A stretch of 52,532 bases of DNA, filler included, from Squatina squatina (lineage: Eukaryota): NCBI GenBank assembly GCA_031763465.1. It is 3 parts of 3 records of this genome, joined end to end, with 100 filler letters (N's around TTAATTAATTAA, not from the genome) between each part and the next. Parts side by side here need not be neighbours in the genome. Positions count along the whole stretch, not along the records: positions 1 to 25,205 come from JARFOE010000057.1; 2 more parts are not named here. One strand, given 5' to 3'. Shown piece after piece: positions 14,085-48,016 of this stretch. The translations under genes were made by a program, and so were the position numbers. The notes under the pieces are model-generated. The model worked only from the letters and a program-made list of their open reading frames with translations. It made no database searches and was not told the DNA's origin. Each line of letters opens with the position of its first letter. Within the stretch, counting starts at the first letter, position 1.

Positions 14085-15982
14085 TTGTTGCATTGGATCA
14101 AGAGGAGGCCAGCCAGCCCCTTGAGCTTATTACACAGGAACAGGAGGAGGCCATTCAGCCCCTTGATCATGTTTCATAGGAACAGGAGGAGGAAATTCAG
14201 CCTATTGGGCTTGTTATGCAAGAATAGGAGGAGGCCATTCACCCTCTCGAGCTTGTTACATAGGATCAGGAGGAGACCATTCAGCCTCTCATGCTGGTTA
14301 AATTAGGAACACGAGCTGGCCATTCAGTCCATTTCGGCTGTGACATGGGAACAGGAGGAGCTTTTAGCCTCTCCTGTCATATAGGAGATGGAGAAGACCA
14401 TTGAGCCACTCGAGCAGGTTAGATAGGAACTGGAGAGGCTATTTATCTCCTTGAGATTGTTACACATGAACAGGAGGCCATTCAGCCCCTCAAACCTGTT
14501 ACATTGGAATAGGAGGATGTCAATCAGCCCCTCAAACCTATTATATTGGGACTGGAGGAGGCCATTCAGCTCCTCGAACTTGATACGTGTTAACAGGAGG
14601 AAGCCATTCAACCCCTTGAAACTGTAATATTTGAACAGGCAGAGGCCATTCAGCACTCAAACTGTTACGTGTTAACAGGAGGAGGCCGTTCAACCCCTTG
14701 AACCTGATACGTGTGAACAGGTGGAGGCCATTCAGCCCCTCGAACCTGACACGTGCTAACAGGAGGAGGCTGTTCAGCCCCTCGAACCTGATACATGTTA
14801 ACAGCAGGAGACCGTTCAGCCCCTCGTACCTGACACGTGTTAACAGGAGGAGGCCGTTCAACCCCTTGAACCTGATACGTGTGAACAGGCGGAGGCGATT
14901 CAGCCCCTCGAACCTGACACGTGTTAACAGGAGGAGGCTGTTCAGCCCCTCGAACCTGATACATGTTAACAGGAGGAGGCCGTTCAGCCCCTCGAACCTG
15001 ACACGTGCTAACAGGAGGAGGCCATTCAGCCCCTCGAACCTGATACGGATTAACAGGAGGAGGCTGTTCAGCCCCTCGAATCTGATACGTGTGAACAGGA
15101 GGAGGCCATTTCGCCCCTCGAACCTGATAAATGTTAACAGGAGGGGACCAATCAGCCCTCGAACCTGATATGTGTTAGCAGGAGGAGGCCGTTCAGCCCC
15201 TCGAACCTGATACGTGTTAACAGGAGGGGACCAATCAGCCCCTTGAACCTGATACATGTTAACAGGAGGAGGCCATTCAGCCCAGGGCCTTTAACATTAG
15301 AAAAATGAAATAAAGACTTCCCAGACCACCGGACGTCTCAAAGCGATTTACAGCCAATTAGGTACCTTTTGGAGTATAGTCACCGCAGTAATTAGGAACA
15401 GGAGAAGGCCATTCAGTCCCTCGGGGTTGTTGCATAGGAACAGGAGGTAGCCATTCATCCCCTCAAACCTGATATACAGGAACAGGTGGAGGCCATTCAG
15501 CCCCTTAATCCTGTTACATGGGAACAGGAGAACACTTGTCAGCTCCTTAAGCTCCTTGCATAGGAACAGGAGGAGGCCTTTCAATTCCTTTGGGCCTGTA
15601 TCATTAGGAACAGGAGTAGGTGTATTTGGCCCCTAGAGCCTGTTAGACAGAAAGAGGATGAGGCCATCCAGCACCTGGAGTTTGCTAGATAGGAACAGGA
15701 GGCGGCCATTCAGCCCCTCAAGCCTGTTTCATTGGAACAGGAGGAGTGCATTCAGCCCCTGAAGCCTGTTGCATCAGAACAGGAGGCGGCCATTCAGCCC
15801 CCTCGCGTTTATTACATTAGGTACAGAAGGAAGCCATTCAGCATCTTGAGTCCGTTTCATTAGCAACAGGAGGAGGCCATTGAGCCTCTACGGGCGTGTA
15901 ACACAGGAATAGGAGGAGGCCGCATAACCCCTCCAGCTTTTTAAAATTAGGAACAGCAGCAGACCATTCATCCCCTCGATCC
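14085..15982. repeat. ~42-bp minisatellite derived from a CR1/HER1 LINE 3' tail
   Basis: Core unit GTTAACAGGAGGAGGCCGTTCAGCCCCTCGAACCTGATACGT; ORFs repeat every 14 aa; homogeneous core at 14670-15285; array resumes at 17236-17345. Confidence 0.92.
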
Positions 15983-17235
15983 TATGATGACGACATGCAA
16001 GCAGTGATTCTCACCAATGGCTCAACCACAGGCCCAATTCAATTGCATACTGGGGTCAGGCGAGGCTGTGTCATTGCACCGACGCTTTTCTCCATCTTCC
16101 TCGCTGGAGCACTCCATCCCATCTCCATGAAGCTCCCCACTGGAGTTGAGCTAATCTACAGGACGAGTGGGAAAGTCTTCAACCTCCGCCGCCTCCAGTC
16201 CAAATCCAAGATCACCCCAACCTCTATGATTGAGCTGCAATTCGCAGACGACACCTGTGTGTGCACACACACGGAGGCTGATTTCCAATCCATTGTCAAT
16301 TTATTCACTGAGGTATATGAGAGATTGGGACTCACACTGAACATCCACAAGAAAAAGTTCCTAAACCAGCCATACACCACCAATTCGCAAATATCAAGAT
16401 CCACGGCAAGCCCCTGGACAACGTGAAACACTTCCCATACATTGGGAGCCTCCACTCAGCAAGGGCAGACATAGACGACGAAATCCAACACCGCCTTCAG
16501 TGTGCCAGCACAGCCTTCGGTTGCCTGAGGAAGAGAGTGTTTGAAGACAAAGACCTCAGACCCAGCACCAAGCTCATGGTTAGCAGGGCAGCAGTCATAC
16601 CCACCCTCCTGTATACATCGGAGATATGTTCACTGTACAGCAGGCACCTCAAAGCAGTGGAGAAATATGACCACTTCTGCCTCCGCAAAATCCTGCAAAT
16701 GAACTGGTAGGATAAATCCACCATCATCAGCGTTGTCTCTCAGGCCAACATCCCCAGCATCGAGGCACTGGTCACGCTCAGCCGACTGTGATGGGCGGGT
16801 CACATTGTCCGCATGCCTAACTCAAGACTCCCAAAACAAGCACTGTATTCCGATCTCCGTCATAGCAAACAGCTCCGAGGAGGGCAGAGGAAACACCACA
16901 AGGACATCCTCAAAGCCTCATTGAAAAAATGCAACATCCCCACCAACTCATGGGAATCTCGGGCCCAAGACTACCCGCAATGGAGGAGAAGCATTGTGAA
17001 GGCACCAACCGCTTTGAGCATCTCCGGTGGGAGCACATGATGGCCAAGCACAGGAAGTGGATGCAGCGCATGGAAACAAGAGCATCCCATCCTCTCGCCC
17101 CGCCAAATACCACCTGCCCCACCTGTCGTCGATTTTGCAGATCAGCATTGGACTTTTTAGCCATCTCAGAACCCACAACTCCAGAGTGGAAGCAAGTCAT
17201 CCTCGAACCCGAGGGACTGCTGAAGAGGGAGAAGA
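15983..17235 (+). mobile_element. RTE-clade LINE, 5'-truncated RT fragment inserted in the minisatellite
   Basis: TGVRRGCVIAPTLFSIFL, YRTSGKVFNLRRLQ, ELQFADD, HFPYIGS, RLPKQALYSDL...GGQRK, C-terminal CPTCRRFC. Confidence 0.9.
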
Positions 17236-23593: not shown

Positions 23594-25181
23594 TTATTCG
23601 TCAAGTTTGTTCTTCACTTGTTCAAAGAGTTGCATGACTCCCACTGCTGGGACACAGCCTTCTCTTAGAATGGTGATTCCTTCTGAAAAAAGTCAATCAT
23701 TTCTGTCAGAAACAGATTAATCATAGCCAAAGCCCATCACAATTACCACTGAAGTGGTCTTTAGAAATCATTAATAACGGTGAATTATTGAACAAAGTCA
23801 TATTAAAACTAACAGCCTATTTAAAAAATTCATACATGTAGAAACCCTGGGAGCTAGGCTAATACCAGTTATTGGATAAAATCAGTTTACAATTGTACTT
23901 TCTCGATGAACCTCACAGGTGTCAACATGAGTTGCATCTGGCTGACCTGCACAAGTGTTAATAATACATTCAGCAATGTAGCAAATGCTGTAACAAATGG
24001 TCAGCACTAAATGAGACTGCTACGTGTGTACTCAGTCCAACTTCAATCCCATCTCCTATTTCAAATACCACTATGTTCACATATTAAAGCTTGTATATAA
24101 TTGAAAGGAATACACATACATATAAGCCTTAGGGGCTAAACCAATGTAGAAGTTATTGGATAAAATTAGTTTAACCAATTGCGTATATCATTAATATATT
24201 TGAACAGAATGCTGTAATACCTTCATCAATCTTGGTACAGTTTACGACAGTGGAAGCAATCAATTCATTGGAGGTTCCATCACATAGAACACCATCAATC
24301 TTGTACCCAAGACGCCTGTCATTAAACATGATAACACACACATTGAAAAAGACATGTACTATTCGAATACATACGAGATAACCATGTCATGGTGGGTGCT
24401 ATCACACTCTCCACTAGGGTTTGCTGAAGTTATGGCTAGTGGCCCAGTCATATTCACAAGGTGGGCTGTCACAGTGTGGTCAGGAACACGGATCATGATG
24501 CTGTCCTTTGTACCAACACGATCATAGGCAGCGCCAACACCTTTAATAAAGGAGACAATCTGATTGTCAAAACTTCCTTAGAATCTAATCTCATTCTAAT
24601 ACTGATTAACTGATACAACTGGAAGTTTGAACAGGGATCAATAGCTGCTTCAACATGTTCTACGAATCACAATGAATACCTAGTCTCCTCAGCCATTCTC
24701 CTTTCTTCACAATACAACTGATCCCTCCAGGGTAGACATGGTTCATGAATTCCCAGAGCAAGGGGCTGAATGGAGGATGCACTGCAGAAAGTTGGTCCAG
24801 ACTGGAGATACAGATACAGATAGGCTTCTCTGCAGGACGTTCCTGGAAAGCATGGACAGCAATCATCCGTTAAAAGACTGAAAAGTGCACTTTATGGCAA
24901 ATGACATTACTGGGTAAGAATAAAAAGCTGTAAGAGTCTTGTCTGTATGTTCAGTATTTAAATCTCACTGGTTTTGCCATCCATACCTTTATGCTGTAGA
25001 TCCTTTCAACAGCCTCTGGGTGTTTACAGGAAGCTGCCAGGGCGTACACAGTATCAGTTGGTATCCCACACACATGGCCAGAATCCAAGATTTTTGCAAT
25101 AGTTTGCAGACCACTAGTCTGCCATGAAGAAGCAATGGGACAAGATGAAGTGGTTTGGTCTTTCCTTCTGTTTTTTTCAAC
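23594..25181 (-). CDS. YrdC/Sua5 (TsaC)-like domain protein, last five exons: 25181-24987, 24842-24680, 24540-24375, 24315-24221, 23682-23594
   Basis: All GT-AG and phase-compatible; spliced: VEKNRRKDQTTSSCPIASSWQTSGLQTIAKILDSGHVCGIPTDTVYALAASCKHPEAVERIYSIKERPAEKPICICI...VYPGGISCIV...IRVPDH...GPLAITSANPSG...ASTVVNC...ITILREGCVP...KNKLDE*. Confidence 0.92.
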
Positions 25182-25249
25182 CTGTGATTTATGAATAAAA
25201 AGTATNNNNNNNNNNNNNNNNNNNNNNNNNNNNNNNNNNNNNNNNNNNN

Positions 25250-25261
25250 TTAATTAATTAA
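25250..25261. other. Artificial six-frame stop linker inside an N gap
   Basis: TTAATTAATTAA flanked by 44 N on each side; identical construct at 39843-39854. Confidence 0.9.
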
Positions 25262-25363
25262 NNNNNNNNNNNNNNNNNNNNNNNNNNNNNNNNNNNNNNN
25301 NNNNNTATGGATAATTGTGAACGCAGACAAGAGGGAGGGTGGATAATTGAGGCTTCGCTATAC

Positions 25364-25497
25364 CTTGAAAGTCTTCCTTGCCTCATCTTCTGCTCCTGTT
25401 GTAGTCTGATGTTCTCTAATTTTACCGGGCTTGGAATGAATCCGACCTCGCATCCTTCTTTCACCAGTCGCCCTATCCACCAGTCATTGTTATATTT
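25364..25497 (-). CDS. CACNB1: Voltage-gated Ca channel beta-1 subunit, SH3/HOOK exon
   Basis: ag|[44 protein letters not shown]|gt; [11 protein letters not shown] and QEQKxRQ fit beta-1. Confidence 0.9.
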
Positions 25498-26656: not shown

Positions 26657-27300
26657 GGCCCACAGCGCCTCATGGATGCCCAGTTTTGAGCTGCTAGATC
26701 TGTTCTGAATCTATCCCATTTAGCACGGTGGTAGTGCCACACAACACAGTGGAGGGTTTCCTCAGTGTGAAGATGGGACTTCATCTCCACAAGGACTGTG
26801 CGGTGGTCACTGCTACCAATACTGTCATGGACAGATACATCTGCAACAGGTAGATTGGTGAGGATAAGGTCAAGTAGGTCTTTCCCTCGTGTTGGTCTTC
26901 TCATTGCCTGCCGCAGGCCCAGTCTGGCAGCTGTGTCCTTCAGGGCTCGGTCAGTAGTGGAACTACTGAACCACTCTTGGTGATGGACATTTATGTCCCC
27001 CACCCAGAGTACATTCTGTGCCCTTGCTACCCTCAGTGCTTTTTCCAAGTGGTGTTCAACATGGAGGAGTACTGATTCATCAGCTGAGGGAGGGCAGTAG
27101 GTGGTAATCAGTAGGAGGTTTTCTTGTTCGTGTTTGACCTGAAGCCATGAGACTTCATGGGTTCTGGAGTCAATGTTAAGGACTCCCAGGGCCACTCCCT
27201 CCCAAATATATACCACTTTCCCGCCAACTCTGGTGAGTCTGTCCTGTCGATGATACAGGACATACCCAGGGTTAATGATGGAGGAATCTGGGAGGTTGGC
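26657..27300 (-). mobile_element. LINE APE-endonuclease region (CR1/L2 group)
   Basis: HRQDR..GG, LLLITTYCPPS, LWVGDINVHHQEW, PTRGKDLLDLILTN, IGSSDH. Confidence 0.85.
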
Positions 27301-28976
27301 TGAATGGTACTCCAGCATTTAGTGTTCGCACTTAGCAAGTATAACCACTGAATGCAAAGCTCCATGGGACAAAGGCTCGCTCTATCGACCAGGAAAAAGG
27401 AGGAAAACTTCATTCTAACTGAGCAAAAGTCAGTGAGCGTGTTGGGTGGGTAACTTATGACCATGTGGAAGGACTAAAAAAAGTGGCAGCCATCACTGTA
27501 ACAGTTTATCAAGCAGTTTGTTTAATTCCACTGCCAACTTTGTTTAATTGACTTATCCAACTGATTTGTATAAAAGGTTCGGTTCTTGACATTTAGGCAA
27601 TTAAAAGCGGGTTGCATTTTGCACTGTGTATTGTTTGTATTTCACATTTTGAAATCCTTGACTCTCAGCCCAATGCCGTGAAGAGTAATTACAGAAAGGA
27701 CCTGGATTCTCTTTAACAGCTGGCTCTGTGCCAGTTGTTCTACCTCATGGACTCACTGCAAAAACAAGTTGGATACAGAACAGCCAGGAAGTGGCGCAGG
27801 TTTTGTGCAGGTATTAAATTAAACTATGGAATATACGCTAAAAGAATCTATATGCTACAGGGATGCTACTGAGTGGCGATAGAGGCAAAGTTCCACACGC
27901 CATGNNNNNNNNNNNNNNNNNNNNNNNNNNNNNNNNNNNNNNNNNNNNNNNNNNNNNNNNNNNNNNNNNNNNNNNNNNNNNNNNNNNNNNNNNNNNNNNN
28001 NNNNTTGCATGTGAAAGACTAACCCACCTGGACATGGTAGTTGAAGGCACCATACCCCATCAAGACTCAATACCTGGTGGAGAGACAGGGGAGAATGGGC
28101 AATTCCTTTGTAAACAAGCAAATTACTTGTCTTGTCCCTCTTCATGTGTCATAAACAGTACAGCATCTAAAAGGCCCAGTGCCACAAAATTTTACATCTG
28201 CAATTCAAATAGCCCCAGAATAGGATACTACAAAAATCCAGATGTTGCTCCAAATGTAACAAATACTTAATGACAAAAAAAAATCTAACTTGCAGAACAG
28301 TGGAAACAGAGACTCACTGCCAACCACATGTAGGACAAAACAATCAAACCAAGTAGCTACTTCAGAGCAACACGCAAGCATACATCGGCGAGACTGATGG
28401 CAGGTCTGTATCAATAAACACTTGCTGCTCCACTGGCTATGATAAAAATAGCCAGTTTTATATGGGTTATTCTACNNNNNNNNNNGTGAATTTAATAGGT
28501 TTGCCATCTATGTTGCATCTGATCTTGACGGCACTATTTTACCTCATGCTAATGTTTTGTTTCTTGAAACCTGGATGACTGGCCAAGGCCCACAGTGCAA
28601 TTTCAGTTTTAAATATACTCATCAACTGAGCATCAAGAAGATTAAATAGAGTCGAGAGGGAGAGAGAAAAAAAATGAAACAAATTAGGTAAATAGTACTT
28701 CGGGGGTGTCAGGCTTGGGTTTAAAAACCTGCCAGTGAATCATAACTGGGTCACTGACCACTGGTGTGAATTGTATAATTAGGTCCAAGGGGCAGCTAAG
28801 TGTGTTTTGAAGTCCTGGAAAAGAATCAGTTAGAACAGAACATGCGGGGCTTGCCTGTCGGATGGAGTGTTTGGAACTAAGGACGGTCAAGAGAGCAGTG
28901 TTGACCACAGTATTATTGATAAAATAATAAGAGCACAAATACAGTCGTTTTATAGTGCTTTTGGTCATCTACTTAC

Positions 28977-32595: not shown

Positions 32596-33644
32596 TAAGG
32601 TTCCTTGATGATTATCCCTGGCAGAACTATTCCTTTCCCGGAGGTGGTGAATTGGCCTGAGGTTGGGTTTGGTCTACTTGCAGACTTCTACCTTGCCTAA
32701 GTAGTTACTCATGAACCTCGTCTCTCCTGTCTGGACCTGATACCCATGTTTGTTTCTACCGGTTGCTGGGCAGTCTGTCTTTAATTCCTCCTTAATCTGG
32801 GGTGCTAGGACTAATTGTGATGTGCCCCCACTGCATCCCTGGCTGACATCAGCTAACTGAGTCCACTGGAATCTTTCTCACCAAAACTACCCAAAACCAT
32901 TTACCTGCAATCTTGTGCTATAGAATTGTCCTGGTTTTGAATACAAAGTCACTACCATTCTCAACAGATATCTCTGCTCTGTACAGTCTTTTGAAATTGC
33001 TTAACAGAAGTGTTTTAGTGATATGCTGAATTATGGTTTGTGTCTTTCCTCCAATTTGCCAGGTTAGCCAATTAGTTATCTCTTGGTATGCCCTGGGCAG
33101 CCTCTGGTTTCTATTTTTTTTTTTAAGTTGACCTTTGGTATGCCCACTGCTTCTAGGCCTCAAATGACTGTGTATTTGGCAGCTCTCTGATAGGCATCCA
33201 AGTGGAGATGGAAGTAAGAGTGGAACATGAGGTGAAGTTTGTGTATTTGCGTAGCTCGGTGCCTGGGATTTGCTGGTAGTCTGGCTCCTGTTTGTAGGTT
33301 TCTTTACTTCAGAACTTCCACGCTCAAATTATTCTAGTGACATTGAAATATCTCTAATTCCCCTTTGATTTGAATAATTAGAAATTTAGGATAAGGCTTA
33401 TGATGGGTCATATGACAATCATGGCAGTGATTAGTCAGATTTCTGAATTTAGGTTTCATAAATGCAAATTTAGTTTTTGTGTTAAACGAAGCAGTTCTAG
33501 AAATCCTGCATGGCTAGTTTTTCATANNNNNNNNNNNNNNNNNNNNNNNNNNNNNNNNNNNNNNNNNNNNNNNNNNNNNNNNNNNNNNNNNNNNNNNNNN
33601 NNNNNNNNNNNNNNNNNNNNNNNNNNGTGTCTCTCCCATTTCAG

Positions 33645-33874
33645 TCAAATACAGCTGTACCAATTGTGAAAAGAAATTTAAACGCTCAAGTGGCCTACGC
33701 AGACACAAGCGGATTCATGCCGCTCGGGTGTCTGAGTGGGCATGTCCAATTGAGGATTGCAAACTGAATTTCAGAGCTGCCTTTAACTTGGAACATCATA
33801 TCCGAAAAGACCATTTCAAGGTCCTTGAATACCAATGCCACTTCCCAGACTGCCAGAAGGCTTTTACTATGAAA
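33645..33874 (+). CDS. C2H2 zinc-finger exon of a p43 (42Sp43)/TFIIIA-family 5S RNA-binding protein
   Basis: ag|..KYSCTNCEKKFKRSSGLRRHKRIHAARVSEWACPIEDCKLNFRAAFNLEHHIRKDHFKVLEYQCHFPDCQKAFTMK|gtaagt; finger spacing matches fingers 7-9 of the TFIIIA family. Confidence 0.8.
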
Positions 33875-34339
33875 GTAAGTATTCCGAGCCTGGAAAGCGA
33901 GTGAAATTAACAACTGCCCCTCTCTTCCTCAATTCCTTTTCCTACACTTGGTATTGAGGGTACTTTTTATGGCAGTCATGGGGAGGGAGTTGGTTGAAAA
34001 CAGCATTTTAAAACCAAGCAGATCGATTCTTTGATTCATAATCTTATTTAGATTTTGAGACAGTGGAGGAGTATTGAGGCTGTGAAATGTGTTTCTGAAG
34101 TTGATCATTGAAGCAGAGACCATGTCAACATTTAATAGGATAGATAGGTAGTTGATGGAAAATGAATAAAGGGCTATGTTAACAGGGCAGGTGCATGGAA
34201 TTGGGACTACTGCATTGGAGGATAAATATCTATACAATTAGTTGGGCTGCATGGCCAGTTTCTGTATTATTGCTATGTCTACTATGTTGCTCAGGAACAG
34301 GCAATAAGTTGCCATATGAACAGATTCATTCATTTCAAA

Positions 34340-38210: not shown

Positions 38211-39842
38211 TTCCATTCTTCTTTCTACTTAGGGTGTAACTGAATTTCCACAACATCCCAAGTCACTTGTAAATTAAGCTTTAGCGTAACCTTGAATTTA
38301 TTTAGAAAAATACCATTTTGTGTTTAAATACTGGGACAGCTTGAAGAGCTTAACACATGGTATTTCCACTGGCTGAACTCCAGGAGATAAACAAACAGAT
38401 TAGTGTTTGCAATGTTGAGGAGAAAGGGGTGGGATGGAAAACTTTAGACTTAAATGACACCGACGATTACAACTCTAAGGCGAACAGGCGTTCCTGGAAA
38501 TGAATGGGGAATAAAGGAAGAGCACGAGAAGTCGGGAAGCAGAGGTTAGTAGGCTGAGTGAACAGTGGTAAAATTCTGTGAACTTCCTCTGTAATCTTAG
38601 GATCAGTAATGTAAACTGAAATCACCCATCAGCACAGAGCAGTGATTAAACGTTGGACCTTCCTGGGCTGGATGTCGCAGTGCCACATCGAGTAAAGATA
38701 CGAAGGCATTGAGGGAGCTGCAATGCATTTGTTCTTAATTGAACACAATAGTTGTCATGAAAAAAGCAAAAGTCTTATCCAACATTTTTGTTTTTGAAAT
38801 GTGGAAGAAGAGTTAGAGTCAATTTACTTAGAATTTACGGNNNNNNNNNNNNNNNNNNNNNNNNNNNNNNNNNNNNNNNNNNNNNNNNNNNNNNNNNNNN
38901 NNNNNNNNNNNNNNNNNNNNNNNNNNNNNNNNNNNNNNNNTCCCTTCTGCATTGCTGAGGAAATGAAATAGGACCTACAAAAAGGTCAAAACTGATGTTC
39001 GTGTTGCTTTAAGTGGGGAAAAAAAAACCTATAATAAAGGGCTTACATAATGGTTAGATGTGACATGATTTATAATTGTCCCTGGGTAGTATAATGATTA
39101 TGACAGCGTGGGGAGAAGCTACAAGTTCATACATTAAATGAGGTACCAACAGGCAACAATTGGTCTTCGAGCAGACAGAGTCAGCTGACTGTAATCTCTT
39201 CTGTTTTTTTTCCATTGGATCGGTACTAATCTATCGTAACTGTATTTACCTACACGCGAGAAGATTTGTTGAGCTAAATTTGATGTCTTGCGCTTGGCTG
39301 ACACATTTCTGCTATTAGTCATGCAGTAGATTTGTGACTGATGTAATTAATACCCTAATTTACAAAGTTCCTTATTCATATTTCATACTTAAAATGGCAG
39401 AATGTGATTAAAGTGGTTGGTTATGTATATTAATATTTACTGCATGTAGTGACAGCAATATCTCATGAACACATGCATTAAACTCAGTTAAGATTCCTTT
39501 ACCATTCACATCATTTCTCTCAAATACTTTCCAATTTTGACAACACATTACTACGCCCCAATAGAAGCCGATTTTACTTGCTGTTAACAGAATGTCAATC
39601 TGGCTCCTCAAAGAAAGAAAGGGTAGCGCTGGAGAGTAAAACACGCTCTTGTTTTTAAGGTTTTGAGCACCCAGCCCTCCTAGGTCAGTTGCAGAGTAAA
39701 GCTCTGACCCAACATTCACTAAAAAGCCCAGATCTGGTCATTATCACATTACTGTTTGTGGGAGCTTGCTGTGAGCAAGTTGGCTGCCGTGTTTCCTANN
39801 NNNNNNNNNNNNNNNNNNNNNNNNNNNNNNNNNNNNNNNNNN

Positions 39843-39854
39843 TTAATTAATTAA
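39843..39854. other. Artificial six-frame stop linker inside an N gap
   Basis: TTAATTAATTAA between N runs. Confidence 0.9.
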
Positions 39855-41686
39855 NNNNNNNNNNNNNNNNNNNNNNNNNNNNNNNNNNNNNNNNNNNNCA
39901 GCAACTACCATATTTTTGGTTGTTGTAAAACAATTGAAATCCAATAGAACAAATTAAGCAGTGATTCTTAGTGCAACTTCTAGCATTCGTTACAGTAATA
40001 TATGTTTATCTATAAGTATATCATTGTATAAATTTCCATTGAGAAACGTTCCCTGTAAAATGCCGCTTGCCCTAGGTAGGTTGACTTTTGTGTGCACATT
40101 TTCACTGACATGGTTTTCAGTGAGCTGACCCAATCTCTTAACCCACAAAATTCCTTGAAATTCACAAATCACTTACCTCACTACAAGAGTTAATCAGAAG
40201 GCATCATAAAATGTTATCACTATCATTCTGGGGATCTCAGTTTGATCATGGAAGGCACTCTTTATATTTAGGCCTCATGTCATTAATCCACCCTAACTCT
40301 AAAATGATGATCTCAGTAAATAATCTATTATCATTGTGCAGCTGTAATGGATTAAAACAATTTTAGTAAACTAGGAAGTAAATAGTGTTACACTGAGAAC
40401 AGTTAATATTGGAGGAGGGAAAAATAGATAGAAATGATTAAAAAAATGTCTTTCCTGTTCTGGATAAAAGACAATGGAAGCAAAAGAATAAGAGTACTTG
40501 GATAAAAACATTCATATACATTAGTATTGTTGAAATTAGTTTCACGATTTTGCATAGTAGCTAAAAACTTTAAAATATATTTGAACAAAAGTCTGATGCA
40601 AAAGCTATCATACATTATTGACAAAGGACACTGTAGTCTGTAAAAATGAAACAGCATAAACAGTTGAAAAGTTTAATATAGTTTCAGCTAAAAACTGAGG
40701 CTGCAGTCGGAATAAATACAAGTATTCCATATTCCCTTAGTAATCCAAATAAACTTATGTTTATACACATAAAGTCTGCATGCCTGAAGATGCTCCTAGT
40801 TTGGTAACATGTTTGACTTTATACAGTTCATAGTATGATGCAGGCTGAAGTAAAATAGTGTTATTTGAGATGATTAAACACAGACCTGCTGTGCAGTCTT
40901 GTTACCATAATTCATCTTTTCCATTTCCCTCATCCTTACTGCTGCCAGCACCACCACCTTCATTGTCTACATACACTCCAAAAAAGCAATATTTCAAAAC
41001 AAAGCAAAAAAAAAGTGAGGCCAATAAAACACAAAACAGGAAGATACCAGATTATTTAAGGCTAAAACTTTCTGTCAAGAGCTCTATGTGCTCTGTATTG
41101 CCGGTAGCCTTCTCTAATTTTGTAAGCAAAACATGCATTCAAAAGGACTAGTTAAAAGAGAACATATTACAATTTGATATACATAAGTATTTGAGATAAT
41201 AATCATCTTAATTTTAATTTAAAGCATGAAATCAATCCTCAAAAGATATCCACTCTCTTTTAGGAATACACCCCGCTGGACCTCAAGCTCCTATTCTGTA
41301 GTACATTTTATGAGGCATAGCAAAGCCTCTTTTTTATATATTTTTTGCTACTACTGAATAAATATAAATTTAATATGAGTCATGCCATAAAACTATATGA
41401 AAAAGTTGCACATCATTATTGCATGCTATTTGTGATACTACATGCTGGCCGATGCTAATATTACAATGAGTTTAAAATGGCTGAGGTCTTGTATCAAAGC
41501 GATAAACATTACATTTCACTACAGCTGGTAAATAAACATCTCAGAATGCACGTAGTGCTAATTAAACTGTGCCCTATTTTGTAAATAATAAATGCAGTAT
41601 ATTTGTCCCATTAAACTTTGAAAATTACAGTAGAATTGTCTTTGATCAAAAATTAGATTTTAGCGTCCATCAAAAAGTTCCTGAAG

Positions 41687-42282
41687 TTACGTAAAACGAT
41701 CAGAGTTCATTTTCCTCAGTTTGGGAGGAAGGTTTCCCTCAATCCTTGAACCACCTGCTAATCTCTGTAGCTTTGGTGGCAGGTCAGCCACAGACTGGCT
41801 CATTGGGTCACAGGCCACCTTACTGGTCTTTGGCACCAATTTTTCCTCAGAATTTCCAGGAACTGAGCTGATTCGTTGGAGCTTCAGAGGCAGATCACCC
41901 ATACTATATGCTTTTTCTGAGGTGGTAGAACTCATTCTTAGCAATTTTTTTGGTAGGTCTTCCCTCCCTGTGATCTTCTGCAATTTCAGTGGTATCCTGG
42001 TACTTAGGTCATCAAGACTATCGAAGCAGTCCACAGAATCATTTCTATCTGGTATAATGCCTCTGCTGTTGTTAACAGCTGGGGCCATCAAAGGAGAGGA
42101 CATGAACAGCATTTCCTCTTGTTCTTTCACACTGTATGGTGGTGTTGGAATTTCAAATGTTGCATGAAATTGTGAGTAGTCTACTTTGAAGAATCCTTCT
42201 TCCAGAGAAATAACTGGGAAAAAACGATTACCCCAAAGAACTTCATCTTCTGTGTATGATGTCCTAGCTTGGCAAGTCATGC
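41687..42282 (-). CDS. KCNJ3: G protein-activated inward rectifier K+ channel 1 (GIRK1/Kir3.1), last exon
   Basis: ag|[44 protein letters not shown]...[14 protein letters not shown]. Confidence 0.96.
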
Positions 42283-43721
42283 CTAGAGGAAAAATACAAA
42301 TGTAAATAAATAATTCTGTCAGAATTTAAGCTAGACCTGAAATATATATTGTACAATATATAATGCTATATATATATATTACATATAGATATATATATAT
42401 AGCATTAATCTGATCACTTGATGCTTAAAATTCAATGGGCAGGTAATTGCTAACCACTATTTAAAAGTCAAAAACTAGGCATCTAACTACCATTCCATCA
42501 TCAACATTGGCCCTGAAATTGCAATCGGAGGCTTCCTGCGTGCGGAGGCCTCAGATGGCAAAAATATTTACGTACTTACCTGACAGTCCTTGATCCACGT
42601 GACCTTGCGAGTTTGAGCCCCCCCCACCGAGTTGGAGATTCGGAGTGAGACTCTGTAGATTCCTGGAGAAGTTCAGCAAACAGGCTGGAGGTCACATGGG
42701 AGGCCCCAACCAATCAGGTAGGAGTATCTTTCATTTAAGTTTTGACAGTTCTCACAGAACTGTCAAAACATGAATGAAAGATGAAAAGCAACAGAAACAC
42801 ATCCGAAAACATTAAAAAAAACTATTCTAACATTAAAATTTAATAAAAAGGAAATAAATAAGACAATTCTTTTTTGAAATTTAAAAAAAAATCTTTAAAA
42901 ATGTTTAAAAACATACTTACCTTACTGGGAATGGTTTTAAAGTNNNNNNNNNNNNNNNNNNNNNNNNNNNNNNNNNNNNNNNNNNNNNNNNNNNNNNNNN
43001 NNNNNNNNNNNNNNNNNNNNNNNNNNNNNNNNNNNNNNNNNNNTATTGATAAAATGAGCTGAGAAGCATCTGAACCAAGCCACATTTGGGCATTGGCAGA
43101 ATTGCCCAGTTTCTGTGGCTTGTATCATTAGCATCAAATGCAGCTTGTTCATTAGACTTTCGTGGTAGTAATTCTCTGTTAACTGGTGCCGAAAATCTTT
43201 CAGCTTGTATAAGGTACAATCCATTTTCATTTTAATTCCCTCGCTACAGAATTTCTTGATAAATACCATCAATGGAAGACATTTCACATATTATTTGTGT
43301 AAAAAACTGAACATTTCTTAATGAATCTCAATTTGCTTTGTGATGCATACTAAGCAGAGGATTTGAAAATGTATTTCATTATTAAAAGACTCCTGTAAAA
43401 AGCTGCATATGTGGCTTTAATAATTATGGAGTATTGCTACCAAGGCTGCATAATGACATGCTGATTACAGCTTTCAGAATACTGTAGAGATGGTGCAAAC
43501 TGCAGGGACAGAGCTCATATCATGGGGTTTCTGTGAGGATTTAATACAAGCTGATGCACTCAAACCACAATATACATTTTCTGTTGAATAAATTACTAAT
43601 AGGATCGAAATTGGCTCCCGCNNNNNNNNNNNNNNNNNNNNNNNNNNNNNNNNNNNNNNNNNNNNNNNNNNNNNNNNNNNNNNNNNNNNNNNNNNNNNNN
43701 NNNNNNNNNNNNNNNNNNNNN

Positions 43722-47674: not shown

Positions 47675-48016
47675 GGACCAATCGGGTCCGGCCAGCAGTA
47701 CTTCCCGTGGATCCACGTGGAGGACCTGGGTGGGATTATCGCGCACGCGCTGGAGCGCGGGTCAGTGACGGGCATACTGAACGGGGTGGCTCCCGCCCAG
47801 AACACCAACGGCGAGTTCGCCAGGGCGATGGCAGCCAGCCTGAGGCGACCGGCAGTGCTGCCCCTGCCATGGTTCGCGGTGCAGGCGGTGCTGGGTGCCG
47901 AGCGAGGGGTCATGCTGCTGGAGGGCCAGCGGGTGGTGCCTGAGCGCACTTTGCAGAGCGGCTACAAGTACCGCTACCCCGTGCTCCGGGCTGCCCTGGA
48001 GGACATCGTGTCCTGA
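47675..48016 (+). CDS. SDR39U1: Epimerase family protein SDR39U1, last exon
   Basis: GPIGSGQQYFPWIHVEDL...GILNGVAP...LLEGQRVVPERTLQSGYKYRYPVLRAALEDIVS*; AATAAA at 48290-48295. Confidence 0.93.
   Translation, partial: GPIGSGQQYFPWIHVEDLGGIIAHALERGSVTGILNGVAPAQNTNGEFARAMAASLRRPAVLPLPWFAVQAVLGAERGVMLLEGQRVVPERTLQSGYKYRYPVLRAALEDIVS

Follow-up and report, generated by a model that had tools for sequence, protein, structure and literature searches.

The angelshark (Squatina squatina) locus studied here raises the question of which protein its second YrdC domain belongs to and what that protein might do. The preliminary description of the window, i.e., the whole stretch of 52,532 nucleotides (nt) that was analyzed, regarded this domain as the probable C terminus of a larger, possibly transporter-fused protein unrelated to t6A synthesis and proposed an AceTr-like exon of the same strand as the missing N terminus, which would require misordered contigs or a paralogous copy. 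Five coding exons of the YrdC gene were delimited between positions 25181 and 23594:

24987..25181, minus strand: exon 1 of a.3-type gene (see below), linker and start of the YrdC domain with PTDTVY and the Lys of KxR; cag acceptor, gt donor, phase 0/0, PF01300 match with an E value of 7.6e-9
24680..24842, minus strand: YrdC exon 2 with the Arg of KxR, KPICIC, and YPGGIS; PF01300 match
24375..24540, minus strand: YrdC exon 3 with IRVP and TSANPSG; 95% identity to Heterodontus P0005
24221..24315, minus strand: YrdC exon 4 with ASTVV
23594..23679, minus strand: last coding exon with LREG and the stop codon TAA

All introns of this minus-strand gene have GT..AG ends and matching phase, and the spliced coding length of 705 nt corresponds to 234 amino acids (aa) plus TAA. 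All motifs listed beforehand, i.e., PTDTVY, IKER (which is interrupted by intron 1), TSANPSG, STVV, LREG, and YPGGISCIV, are present in the spliced five-exon product. PGPVT is presumably typical of housekeeping YRDC where the window protein has YPGGISCIV, and the same site reads PGPLT in solved Sua5 proteins and PGPYT in MTH1692. The protein ends 20 residues beyond LREG and has no SUA5 domain. Exons 1, 2, and 3 matched PF01300 separately, and exons 4 and 5 by themselves gave no PF01300 match. As a control for chance, 2,163 stop-free six-frame pieces of the window were compared with the YrdC profile of the family; five of them matched (E values of 7e-35 to 3e-8) and were collinear, and the next-best piece had an E value of 2.1. 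The last exon is preceded by a tandem cag-aag acceptor (23680-23685) that permits a one-residue variant, and this choice of acceptor matches the single-residue difference between the isoforms X1 and X2 annotated in Heterodontus.

These exons almost certainly represent the 3' end, in intact form, of a shark gene of the si:ch211-153b23.3 clade (clade A; zebrafish genes of this name series are abbreviated.3,.4, and.5). The closest match, Pristiophorus P0336, shares 92% identity with the window protein; other clade A proteins of sharks and rays share 85 to 90% (80% in the case of a Narcine model), and zebrafish.3 (P0367, 880 aa) shares 74%. The YrdC domain of shark.4, in comparison, is about 50% identical to that of the window protein. 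In the phylogenetic tree the window protein groups with the.3 proteins of Heterodontus and Hypanus (support of 99/91), and its profile score is 439 for clade A versus 271 for clade B. Given membership in a common Pfam family and the many database fragments labeled YRDC or SUA5, an ordinary housekeeping YRDC might have been suspected; however, zebrafish yrdc is a gene separate from.3, so that this reading has next to no chance of being correct. Orthology to YRDC was rejected, indirectly, on the orthology to.3, and the description as a second, non-housekeeping YrdC holds.

The evidence for a fusion comes from the relatives. When exon 1 was used as the query for longer proteins, 120 of 127 matches were listed; 99 of these share a membrane region that belongs to a single family, and 70 comprise at least 800 aa, in line with the expected C terminus of a transporter fusion; the 21 listed matches without a membrane region measure 115 to 515 aa. 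Many of the listed matches combine PF01184 with PF01300 and are named si:ch211-153b23.3, and this architecture of ~870 to 890 aa was found among them in sharks, teleosts, amphibians, reptiles, birds, amphioxus, and a snail. Six of eight cartilaginous-fish representatives have 876 to 880 aa. In addition, six skate-cluster proteins of 880 aa each are located on contigs of 2,979 to 3,491 nt, and since the gene has introns, these contigs are read as spliced fusion transcripts. The architecture itself has already been published by Ghasemi et al., and the window adds a shark member of this recently described family.

Where the remainder of the window copy should be located follows from the start of exon 1 and from the following features:

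25206..25305, no strand: spacer N44-TTAATTAATTAA-N44, inferred join of unrelated scaffolds, with the upstream.3 exons missing beyond it
39799-39898, no strand: second N44-TTAATTAATTAA-N44 spacer, likewise a presumed join of unrelated scaffolds
94..1533, minus strand: large membrane exon of the neighboring paralogue (clade B, si:ch211-153b23.4 type), assigned by identity and profile

As described previously, the first visible exon begins in frame at an acceptor and without a Met: a pyrimidine tract with cag precedes exon 1, which opens in phase 0 and has its earliest in-frame Met at residue 98. The start of exon 1 coincides in the sequence comparison with the PLFK|xEKN position of Pristiophorus P0336 and P0003, and only 24 bases separate the acceptor (25181) from the gap at 25206. 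The orthologues suggest that membrane repeats totaling about 640 aa would lie upstream of 25181, off the scaffold; a profile and sequence search of the whole window revealed no clade A membrane exon. The window copy is likely, with good confidence, to be full-length, i.e., to consist of three AceTr repeats and YrdC. It may nonetheless be partial, because short clade A models exist and the closest match, P0336, is one of them (311 aa with two membrane helices). A truncated tandem duplicate that retains few membrane helices or none and resembles the frog copies would agree with the end of the scaffold at 25205 just upstream of exon 1, with the shortness of both Pristiophorus models, with near-identical models on a single Heterodontus chromosome (312, 623, and 877 aa), and with the occurrence of short clade A models in sharks (203 to 312 aa) and of many copies of 230 to 243 aa in Xenopus and Bombina. 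Against such a duplicate, which we regard as unlikely, stand the phase-0 acceptor with no Met before residue 98, the size of the six full-length cartilaginous-fish representatives, and the fact that the short shark models begin at internal Mets of the membrane region and hence look like fragments.

The AceTr-like exon belongs to another gene. The membrane exon at 1533-94, the 5' side of which is cut by a gap, is 83% identical over 480 aa to Stegostoma.4 and 84% identical over 392 aa to Rhincodon.4, compared with ~24% to the membrane part of clade A orthologues, and its profile score is 692 for clade B versus 97 for clade A. By sequence comparison it is thus an exon of the sister gene.4, situated ~22 kb downstream of the YrdC exons, and the window contains.3 followed by.4 on one strand, an ordinary tandem pair whose order needs no repair. 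Among 182 animal homologues with more than 100 bits in both parts, 99 were A/A, 83 were B/B, and none was mixed; contig misordering was rejected on these counts and, with the order intact, is also unneeded. The idea that exon 1533-94 is the N terminus of the window YrdC protein profits from the shared strand and family and from the fact that orthologues of this exon are YrdC-fused as well, but the two pieces fall into different clades, the identity to the expected N terminus is low, and not a single two-part homologue joins a.4-type membrane region to a.3-type YrdC domain, which makes it extremely improbable. Of the original proposals, the misordering and the union of both peptides in one protein consequently fall, and the fallback of a paralogous copy was correct.

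Linkage of both genes appears to extend beyond sharks. Within a species, A and B proteins often agree in the length of their longest contig, e.g., 80,275 bases in Smithornis, 130,558 in Ramphastos, and 458,535 in Ptilonorhynchus, or whole chromosomes in Lampris and Microcaecilia, from which we infer that the.3/.4 linkage is conserved. A convincing first exon of.4 was not found in the window (best piece with an E value of 0.01 over 13 residues). At the other side of the.4 membrane exon, similarity to relatives ends at base 94 (window 94-60). In 13 relatives the membrane frame extends ~50 codons beyond IIFGL(V/I)S, according to stop-to-stop frames or annotation, as it does in two full-length models (shark and coelacanth). 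A shark-specific intron, for which a weak GTCAGG donor is present, may account for this loss, as may an insertion or an assembly fault.

Since the spacers presumably join unrelated scaffolds, genes on different sides of a spacer should not be taken for neighbors. Beyond the tandem pair, the window contains the following exons of unrelated genes:

33629-33901, plus strand: C2H2 zinc finger exon (Pfam)
41690-42325, minus strand: exon for the C terminus of an inward-rectifier K+ channel (Pfam)
47675-48013, plus strand: DUF1731 exon (Pfam)

Another exon at ~25370-25480 on the minus strand, which gave no Pfam match, presumably encodes a part similar to a calcium-channel beta subunit. The regions 14544-15290, 15902-16423, and 26659-27318 hold a tandem repeat in which either strand has long open frames, as well as fragments of retroelements (reverse transcriptase, endonuclease).

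Which reaction, if any, the domain might catalyze was approached via its active site (residue numbering according to Pyrococcus abyssi, PMC6004061). In the window protein, the KxR/SxN tetrad is intact (K65, R67, S158, and N160), T157 corresponds to the TsaC signature Thr138, and four of the five threonine contacts (T35, H67, R121, S181, and R195) are retained, the exception being His67, which is replaced by Cys (C76). Near-complete YrdC matches were available for 177 of 285 proteins, and the profiles assigned 103 of these to A and 74 to B; two methods of clade assignment disagreed on three rows, which were partial or divergent. Conservation in clade A is close to complete, with T35 and K56 in all 103 proteins, R121, S143, and N145 in 102 each, R58, S181, and the signature Thr in 101 each, and R195 in 98; the H67 site is occupied by Cys in 70 and by Phe in 28 (birds and lizards). 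The active site of clade B (n = 74) is altered: K56, SxN, and R195 are retained, whereas R58 is replaced by Gln in 67 and by Leu in 4 proteins, N62 by Arg in 71, and H67 by Trp in 73. R58 is part of the tetrad that is essential for activity in TsaC and Sua5 (PMC6004061), and the new Arg at position 62 might compensate for its loss. His67 contacts the threonine hydroxyl in Sua5 (PMC10321239); this position is specific to Sua5 and variable in ordinary TsaC. The occupation of the His67 site by Cys or Phe leaves the amino acid substrate of clade A uncertain. At the PGPxT site (S107 of the window protein), Gly instead of Ser is present in 29 clade A rows, which about matches the number of Phe residues at C76, and the combination may represent a compensating change of the pocket in birds and lizards.

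The YrdC part is the most conserved portion of the fusion, with 65 invariant columns among 53 sequences, compared with 36, 13, and 6 in the three membrane repeats. The sharks pass the TIGR00057 cutoff of 123.2 bits (129.8 and 133.3 bits), and six of eight tested proteins, namely those of teleost, snail, and clade B, are below it. The otherwise unalignable C-terminal tails of clade B share N-x-x-F-(x)-E/D (P0121, P0217, P0241, P0257, P0260, P0266, and P0284). We take this motif to resemble a membrane sorting signal.

The membrane part was assessed with the Heterodontus orthologue P0005, whose model (based on the 53-sequence alignment; pLDDT of 76.8, pTM of 0.69) comprises 18 long helices followed by a YrdC fold. 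Structure searches matched it to TsaC2/Sua5 (E value of 2.7e-8) and to SatP (target TM of 0.77 to 0.82; E values of 1e-3 to 3e-3 at a TM of 0.81 to 0.82), and the profile match of P0005 to 5ZUG had an E value of 6e-9. GGxxQ and the SYGSFW-like motif of SatP align in repeat 1, and the AceTr signature NPAPLGL is only partly kept, as EPGVLGL and EPMALG, and degenerate in repeat 3. P0005 narrowly exceeds the Pfam cutoff for AceTr (28.4 versus 25), and all eight tested proteins remain below that of NF038013, the NCBIfam model for AceTr (23 to 34 bits versus 50). Neither the Pfam scan nor the model of P0005 revealed a Kae1-like domain, and the hypF score was 17 versus 466.

The evolutionary history was reconstructed with a 36-row maximum-likelihood tree, which was rooted with six prokaryotic rows as the outgroup, comprised no canonical eukaryotic YRDC, and omitted the long-branched P0247; the tool warned of long branches joining at the root. 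Clades A and B were recovered with supports of 98/98 and 100/99, respectively. Vertebrates form one group within A (100/97) and one within B (98/98), with amphioxus and molluscs outside, and a union of both vertebrate groups was rejected in the 36-row tree (p-AU of 0.0002), in agreement with a quick tree of 67 rows. Because both clades hold molluscs and amphioxus, the A/B duplication is considered ancient, and the molluscan members are thereby explained without transfer. The necessity of a vertebrate-to-mollusc transfer was rejected, as the molluscs are located outside the vertebrates in both clades.

Outside animals, fusions of the membrane and YrdC parts are encoded by intron-bearing metagenome contigs (L003:7663-11707 and L004:2-3132). 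They have at least 18 relatives (e.g., P0293, P0294, P0298, P0302, and P0322), including a record of Cyclotella meneghiniana, the single named record on which the label "diatom-type" is based. KxR is kept in these members, Trp occupies position 67, and the tree places them in a clade of their own, the third one (support of 100/99). Their C terminus is formed by a GAF-like domain (Atlas score of 0.97, with GAF for each of the top families), which gave no Pfam match, had no animal counterpart among 335 proteins, and points to signaling. In Xenopus and Bombina, arrays of channel-less clade A models (230 to 243 aa; P0013, P0354-P0361, P0070, and P0362-P0365) reside on the chromosome of the full-length gene, with intact motifs in those inspected. 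Highly diverged frog members were also observed, namely P0247 of Pyxicephalus, which has lost the YrdC motifs, and P0246 of Pseudophryne. In prokaryotic genomes, a single query retrieved no member and an alignment query retrieved two ordinary-looking TsaC loci with 30 to 31% identity. Among the best 80 of at least 562 confirmed metagenome loci, 78 were TsaC-like (28 to 38%), and none of the 80 was adjoined by a match to the membrane profiles of the family. The family was not found in viral contigs, and an Atlas search with the YrdC domain yielded generic TsaC clusters only.

Expression data for the zebrafish orthologues involve irg1l, which we take to be a relative of itaconate synthase. In whole larvae infected with Shigella sonnei, the single infection study and the only species behind the induction data,.3 had a log2 fold change of 6.04 at 24 h (padj of 3e-13) and ranked fourth by fold change in a table of 23,517 rows; the same table gives log2 fold changes of 4.05 for.4, 3.08 for.5, 5.81 for irg1l, and 3.79 for acod1, compared with 0.27 for yrdc, -0.31 for osgep, and -0.65 for osgepl1, each with a padj of ~1 (PMC6980646). 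Furthermore, a module enriched for inflammation has.3 and.5 among its hub genes, alongside irg1l and noxo1a (PMC11140123). In one list,.3,.4,.5, and irg1l are jointly downregulated 2.2- to 3.0-fold (PMC5841277), which documents co-movement and not induction, and genes of this name series are only listed as differentially expressed or methylated in PMC8877790, PMC11489432, PMC7083608, and 10.1101/2024.09.16.613370. Since zebrafish.3 is strongly induced by infection, the protein is likely to make or handle a small defense molecule and not to modify tRNA. The expression data thereby lend indirect support to the earlier suggestion of a role unrelated to t6A.

Taken together, we favor, with a probability of roughly 0.55, the reading that the YrdC domain of the.3 clade would be an active enzyme outside t6A synthesis; what appears to be the best explanation, held at the same level, is an enzyme that is induced by infection, is attached to a carboxylate channel, and carbamoyl-adenylates an amino acid. 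TsaC/Sua5 proteins form PPi and the labile TC-AMP from threonine, bicarbonate, and ATP (PMC9654439). By analogy, the cytosolic YrdC domain would bind a small amino acid and bicarbonate or CO2, then ATP, and would release PPi and a labile carbamoyl-AMP, as TsaC does. Since no Kae1-type transferase is fused, this product or its breakdown product would either be handed over to an acceptor that is a separate molecule or move through the carboxylate channel to which the domain is joined. Two protomers might form a SatP-like ring of six pores, a hypothesis published by Ghasemi et al., and.4, being linked, co-induced, and altered in its active site, would be the likely partner subunit of.3.

Two other functions were weighed against this enzyme. 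The main competing reading is that the YrdC domain might chiefly serve as a sensor, i.e., as part of a transceptor in which bound amino acid, bicarbonate, and ATP would control gating of, or signaling from, the attached channel, with little useful product. The GAF-like domain behind YrdC in the diatom-type homologues, the retention of clade B from molluscs to birds despite its lost tetrad Arg, and the lack of a fused transferase would fit a sensor; the near-invariant catalytic set of clade A, the absence of the GAF-like tail from the animal members, and the amplified channel-less frog copies with intact motifs, which suit a useful enzyme better than a gate, argue in the other direction and render this role doubtful. 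Alternatively, the protein could be an inducible extra TC-AMP synthase that would raise t6A modification of tRNA during tissue inflammation and receive its substrate via the channel. The TIGR00057 scores of the sharks, the retained threonine contacts, and the high bicarbonate Km of human YRDC (13 mM; PMC9654439) are compatible with this role, but the TC-AMP users osgep and osgepl1 are not induced while.3 is upregulated ~65-fold, the family is absent from mammals (PMC13316224), and most of the tested proteins remain below TIGR00057, so that it is rather improbable.

A broader scenario around the favored enzyme is offered only tentatively. In it,.3 and.4 of non-mammalian animals would form a previously unrecognized machine for an innate-immune metabolite, comparable to IRG1 and itaconate, in which active.3 and altered.4 share one six-pore ring that turns an amino acid, CO2, and ATP into an exported reactive carbamoyl compound during infection. 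The fusion would predate animals or have crossed supergroups, and it would have been duplicated before the split of molluscs and chordates, amplified in free form in frogs, and lost in mammals. If the favored enzyme reading holds, fish, amphibians, reptiles, birds, and molluscs have redeployed a universal tRNA-modifying chemistry for defense, which mammals have lost in this use. The infection response of zebrafish and the split into intact and altered subunits make the function of the family testable, and frogs offer natural soluble YrdC copies.

Proteins combining three six-helix AceTr repeats with a C-terminal Sua5/YciO/YrdC domain (~900 aa) have been described by Ghasemi et al. (10.1101/2025.05.26.656167; PMC13316224), who reported two vertebrate clades, an absence from mammals, and a dimer hypothesis (bioRxiv 2025, iScience 2026; PMC13316224); a literature search on YrdC/Sua5 joined to AceTr/FUN34 retrieved nothing beyond this work. 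The architecture is the same here, and the window holds part of one gene per clade. For the protostome members, horizontal transfer was suggested in that study (10.1101/2025.05.26.656167; PMC13316224), whereas the current tree fits an ancient duplication. Its main text makes no mention of diatoms, stramenopiles, or GAF, and infection, the linkage of the genes, differences between their active sites, and copies without a channel do not seem to be treated there.

With the threonylcarbamoyl-AMP (TC-AMP) synthases TsaC/Sua5/YRDC (COG0009, PF01300), the family shares the fold, the KxR/SxN tetrad, the signature Thr, and four of five threonine contacts. In contrast to these proteins, it is joined to a membrane part, lacks the SUA5 domain, and has Cys, Phe, or Trp in place of His67, and it is infection-induced, dispensable in mammals, and present alongside a separate yrdc gene. 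The likeness to the acetate-succinate channels SatP/Ato1 (AceTr, PF01184; 5ZUG and 5YS3) comprises the six-helix fold and, in repeat 1, GGxxQ and the SYGSFW-like motif, but the fusion family has three repeats per chain and a diverged signature, as reflected by its scores of 23 to 34 bits versus 50 for the NCBIfam AceTr model. TobZ and HypF, in which the same fold makes carbamoyl-adenylate outside tRNA modification (PMC9654439), set a precedent for YrdC chemistry in another pathway. Both have a Kae1-type transferase and use carbamoyl phosphate, whereas the fusion family has a channel instead and has kept the amino acid pocket.
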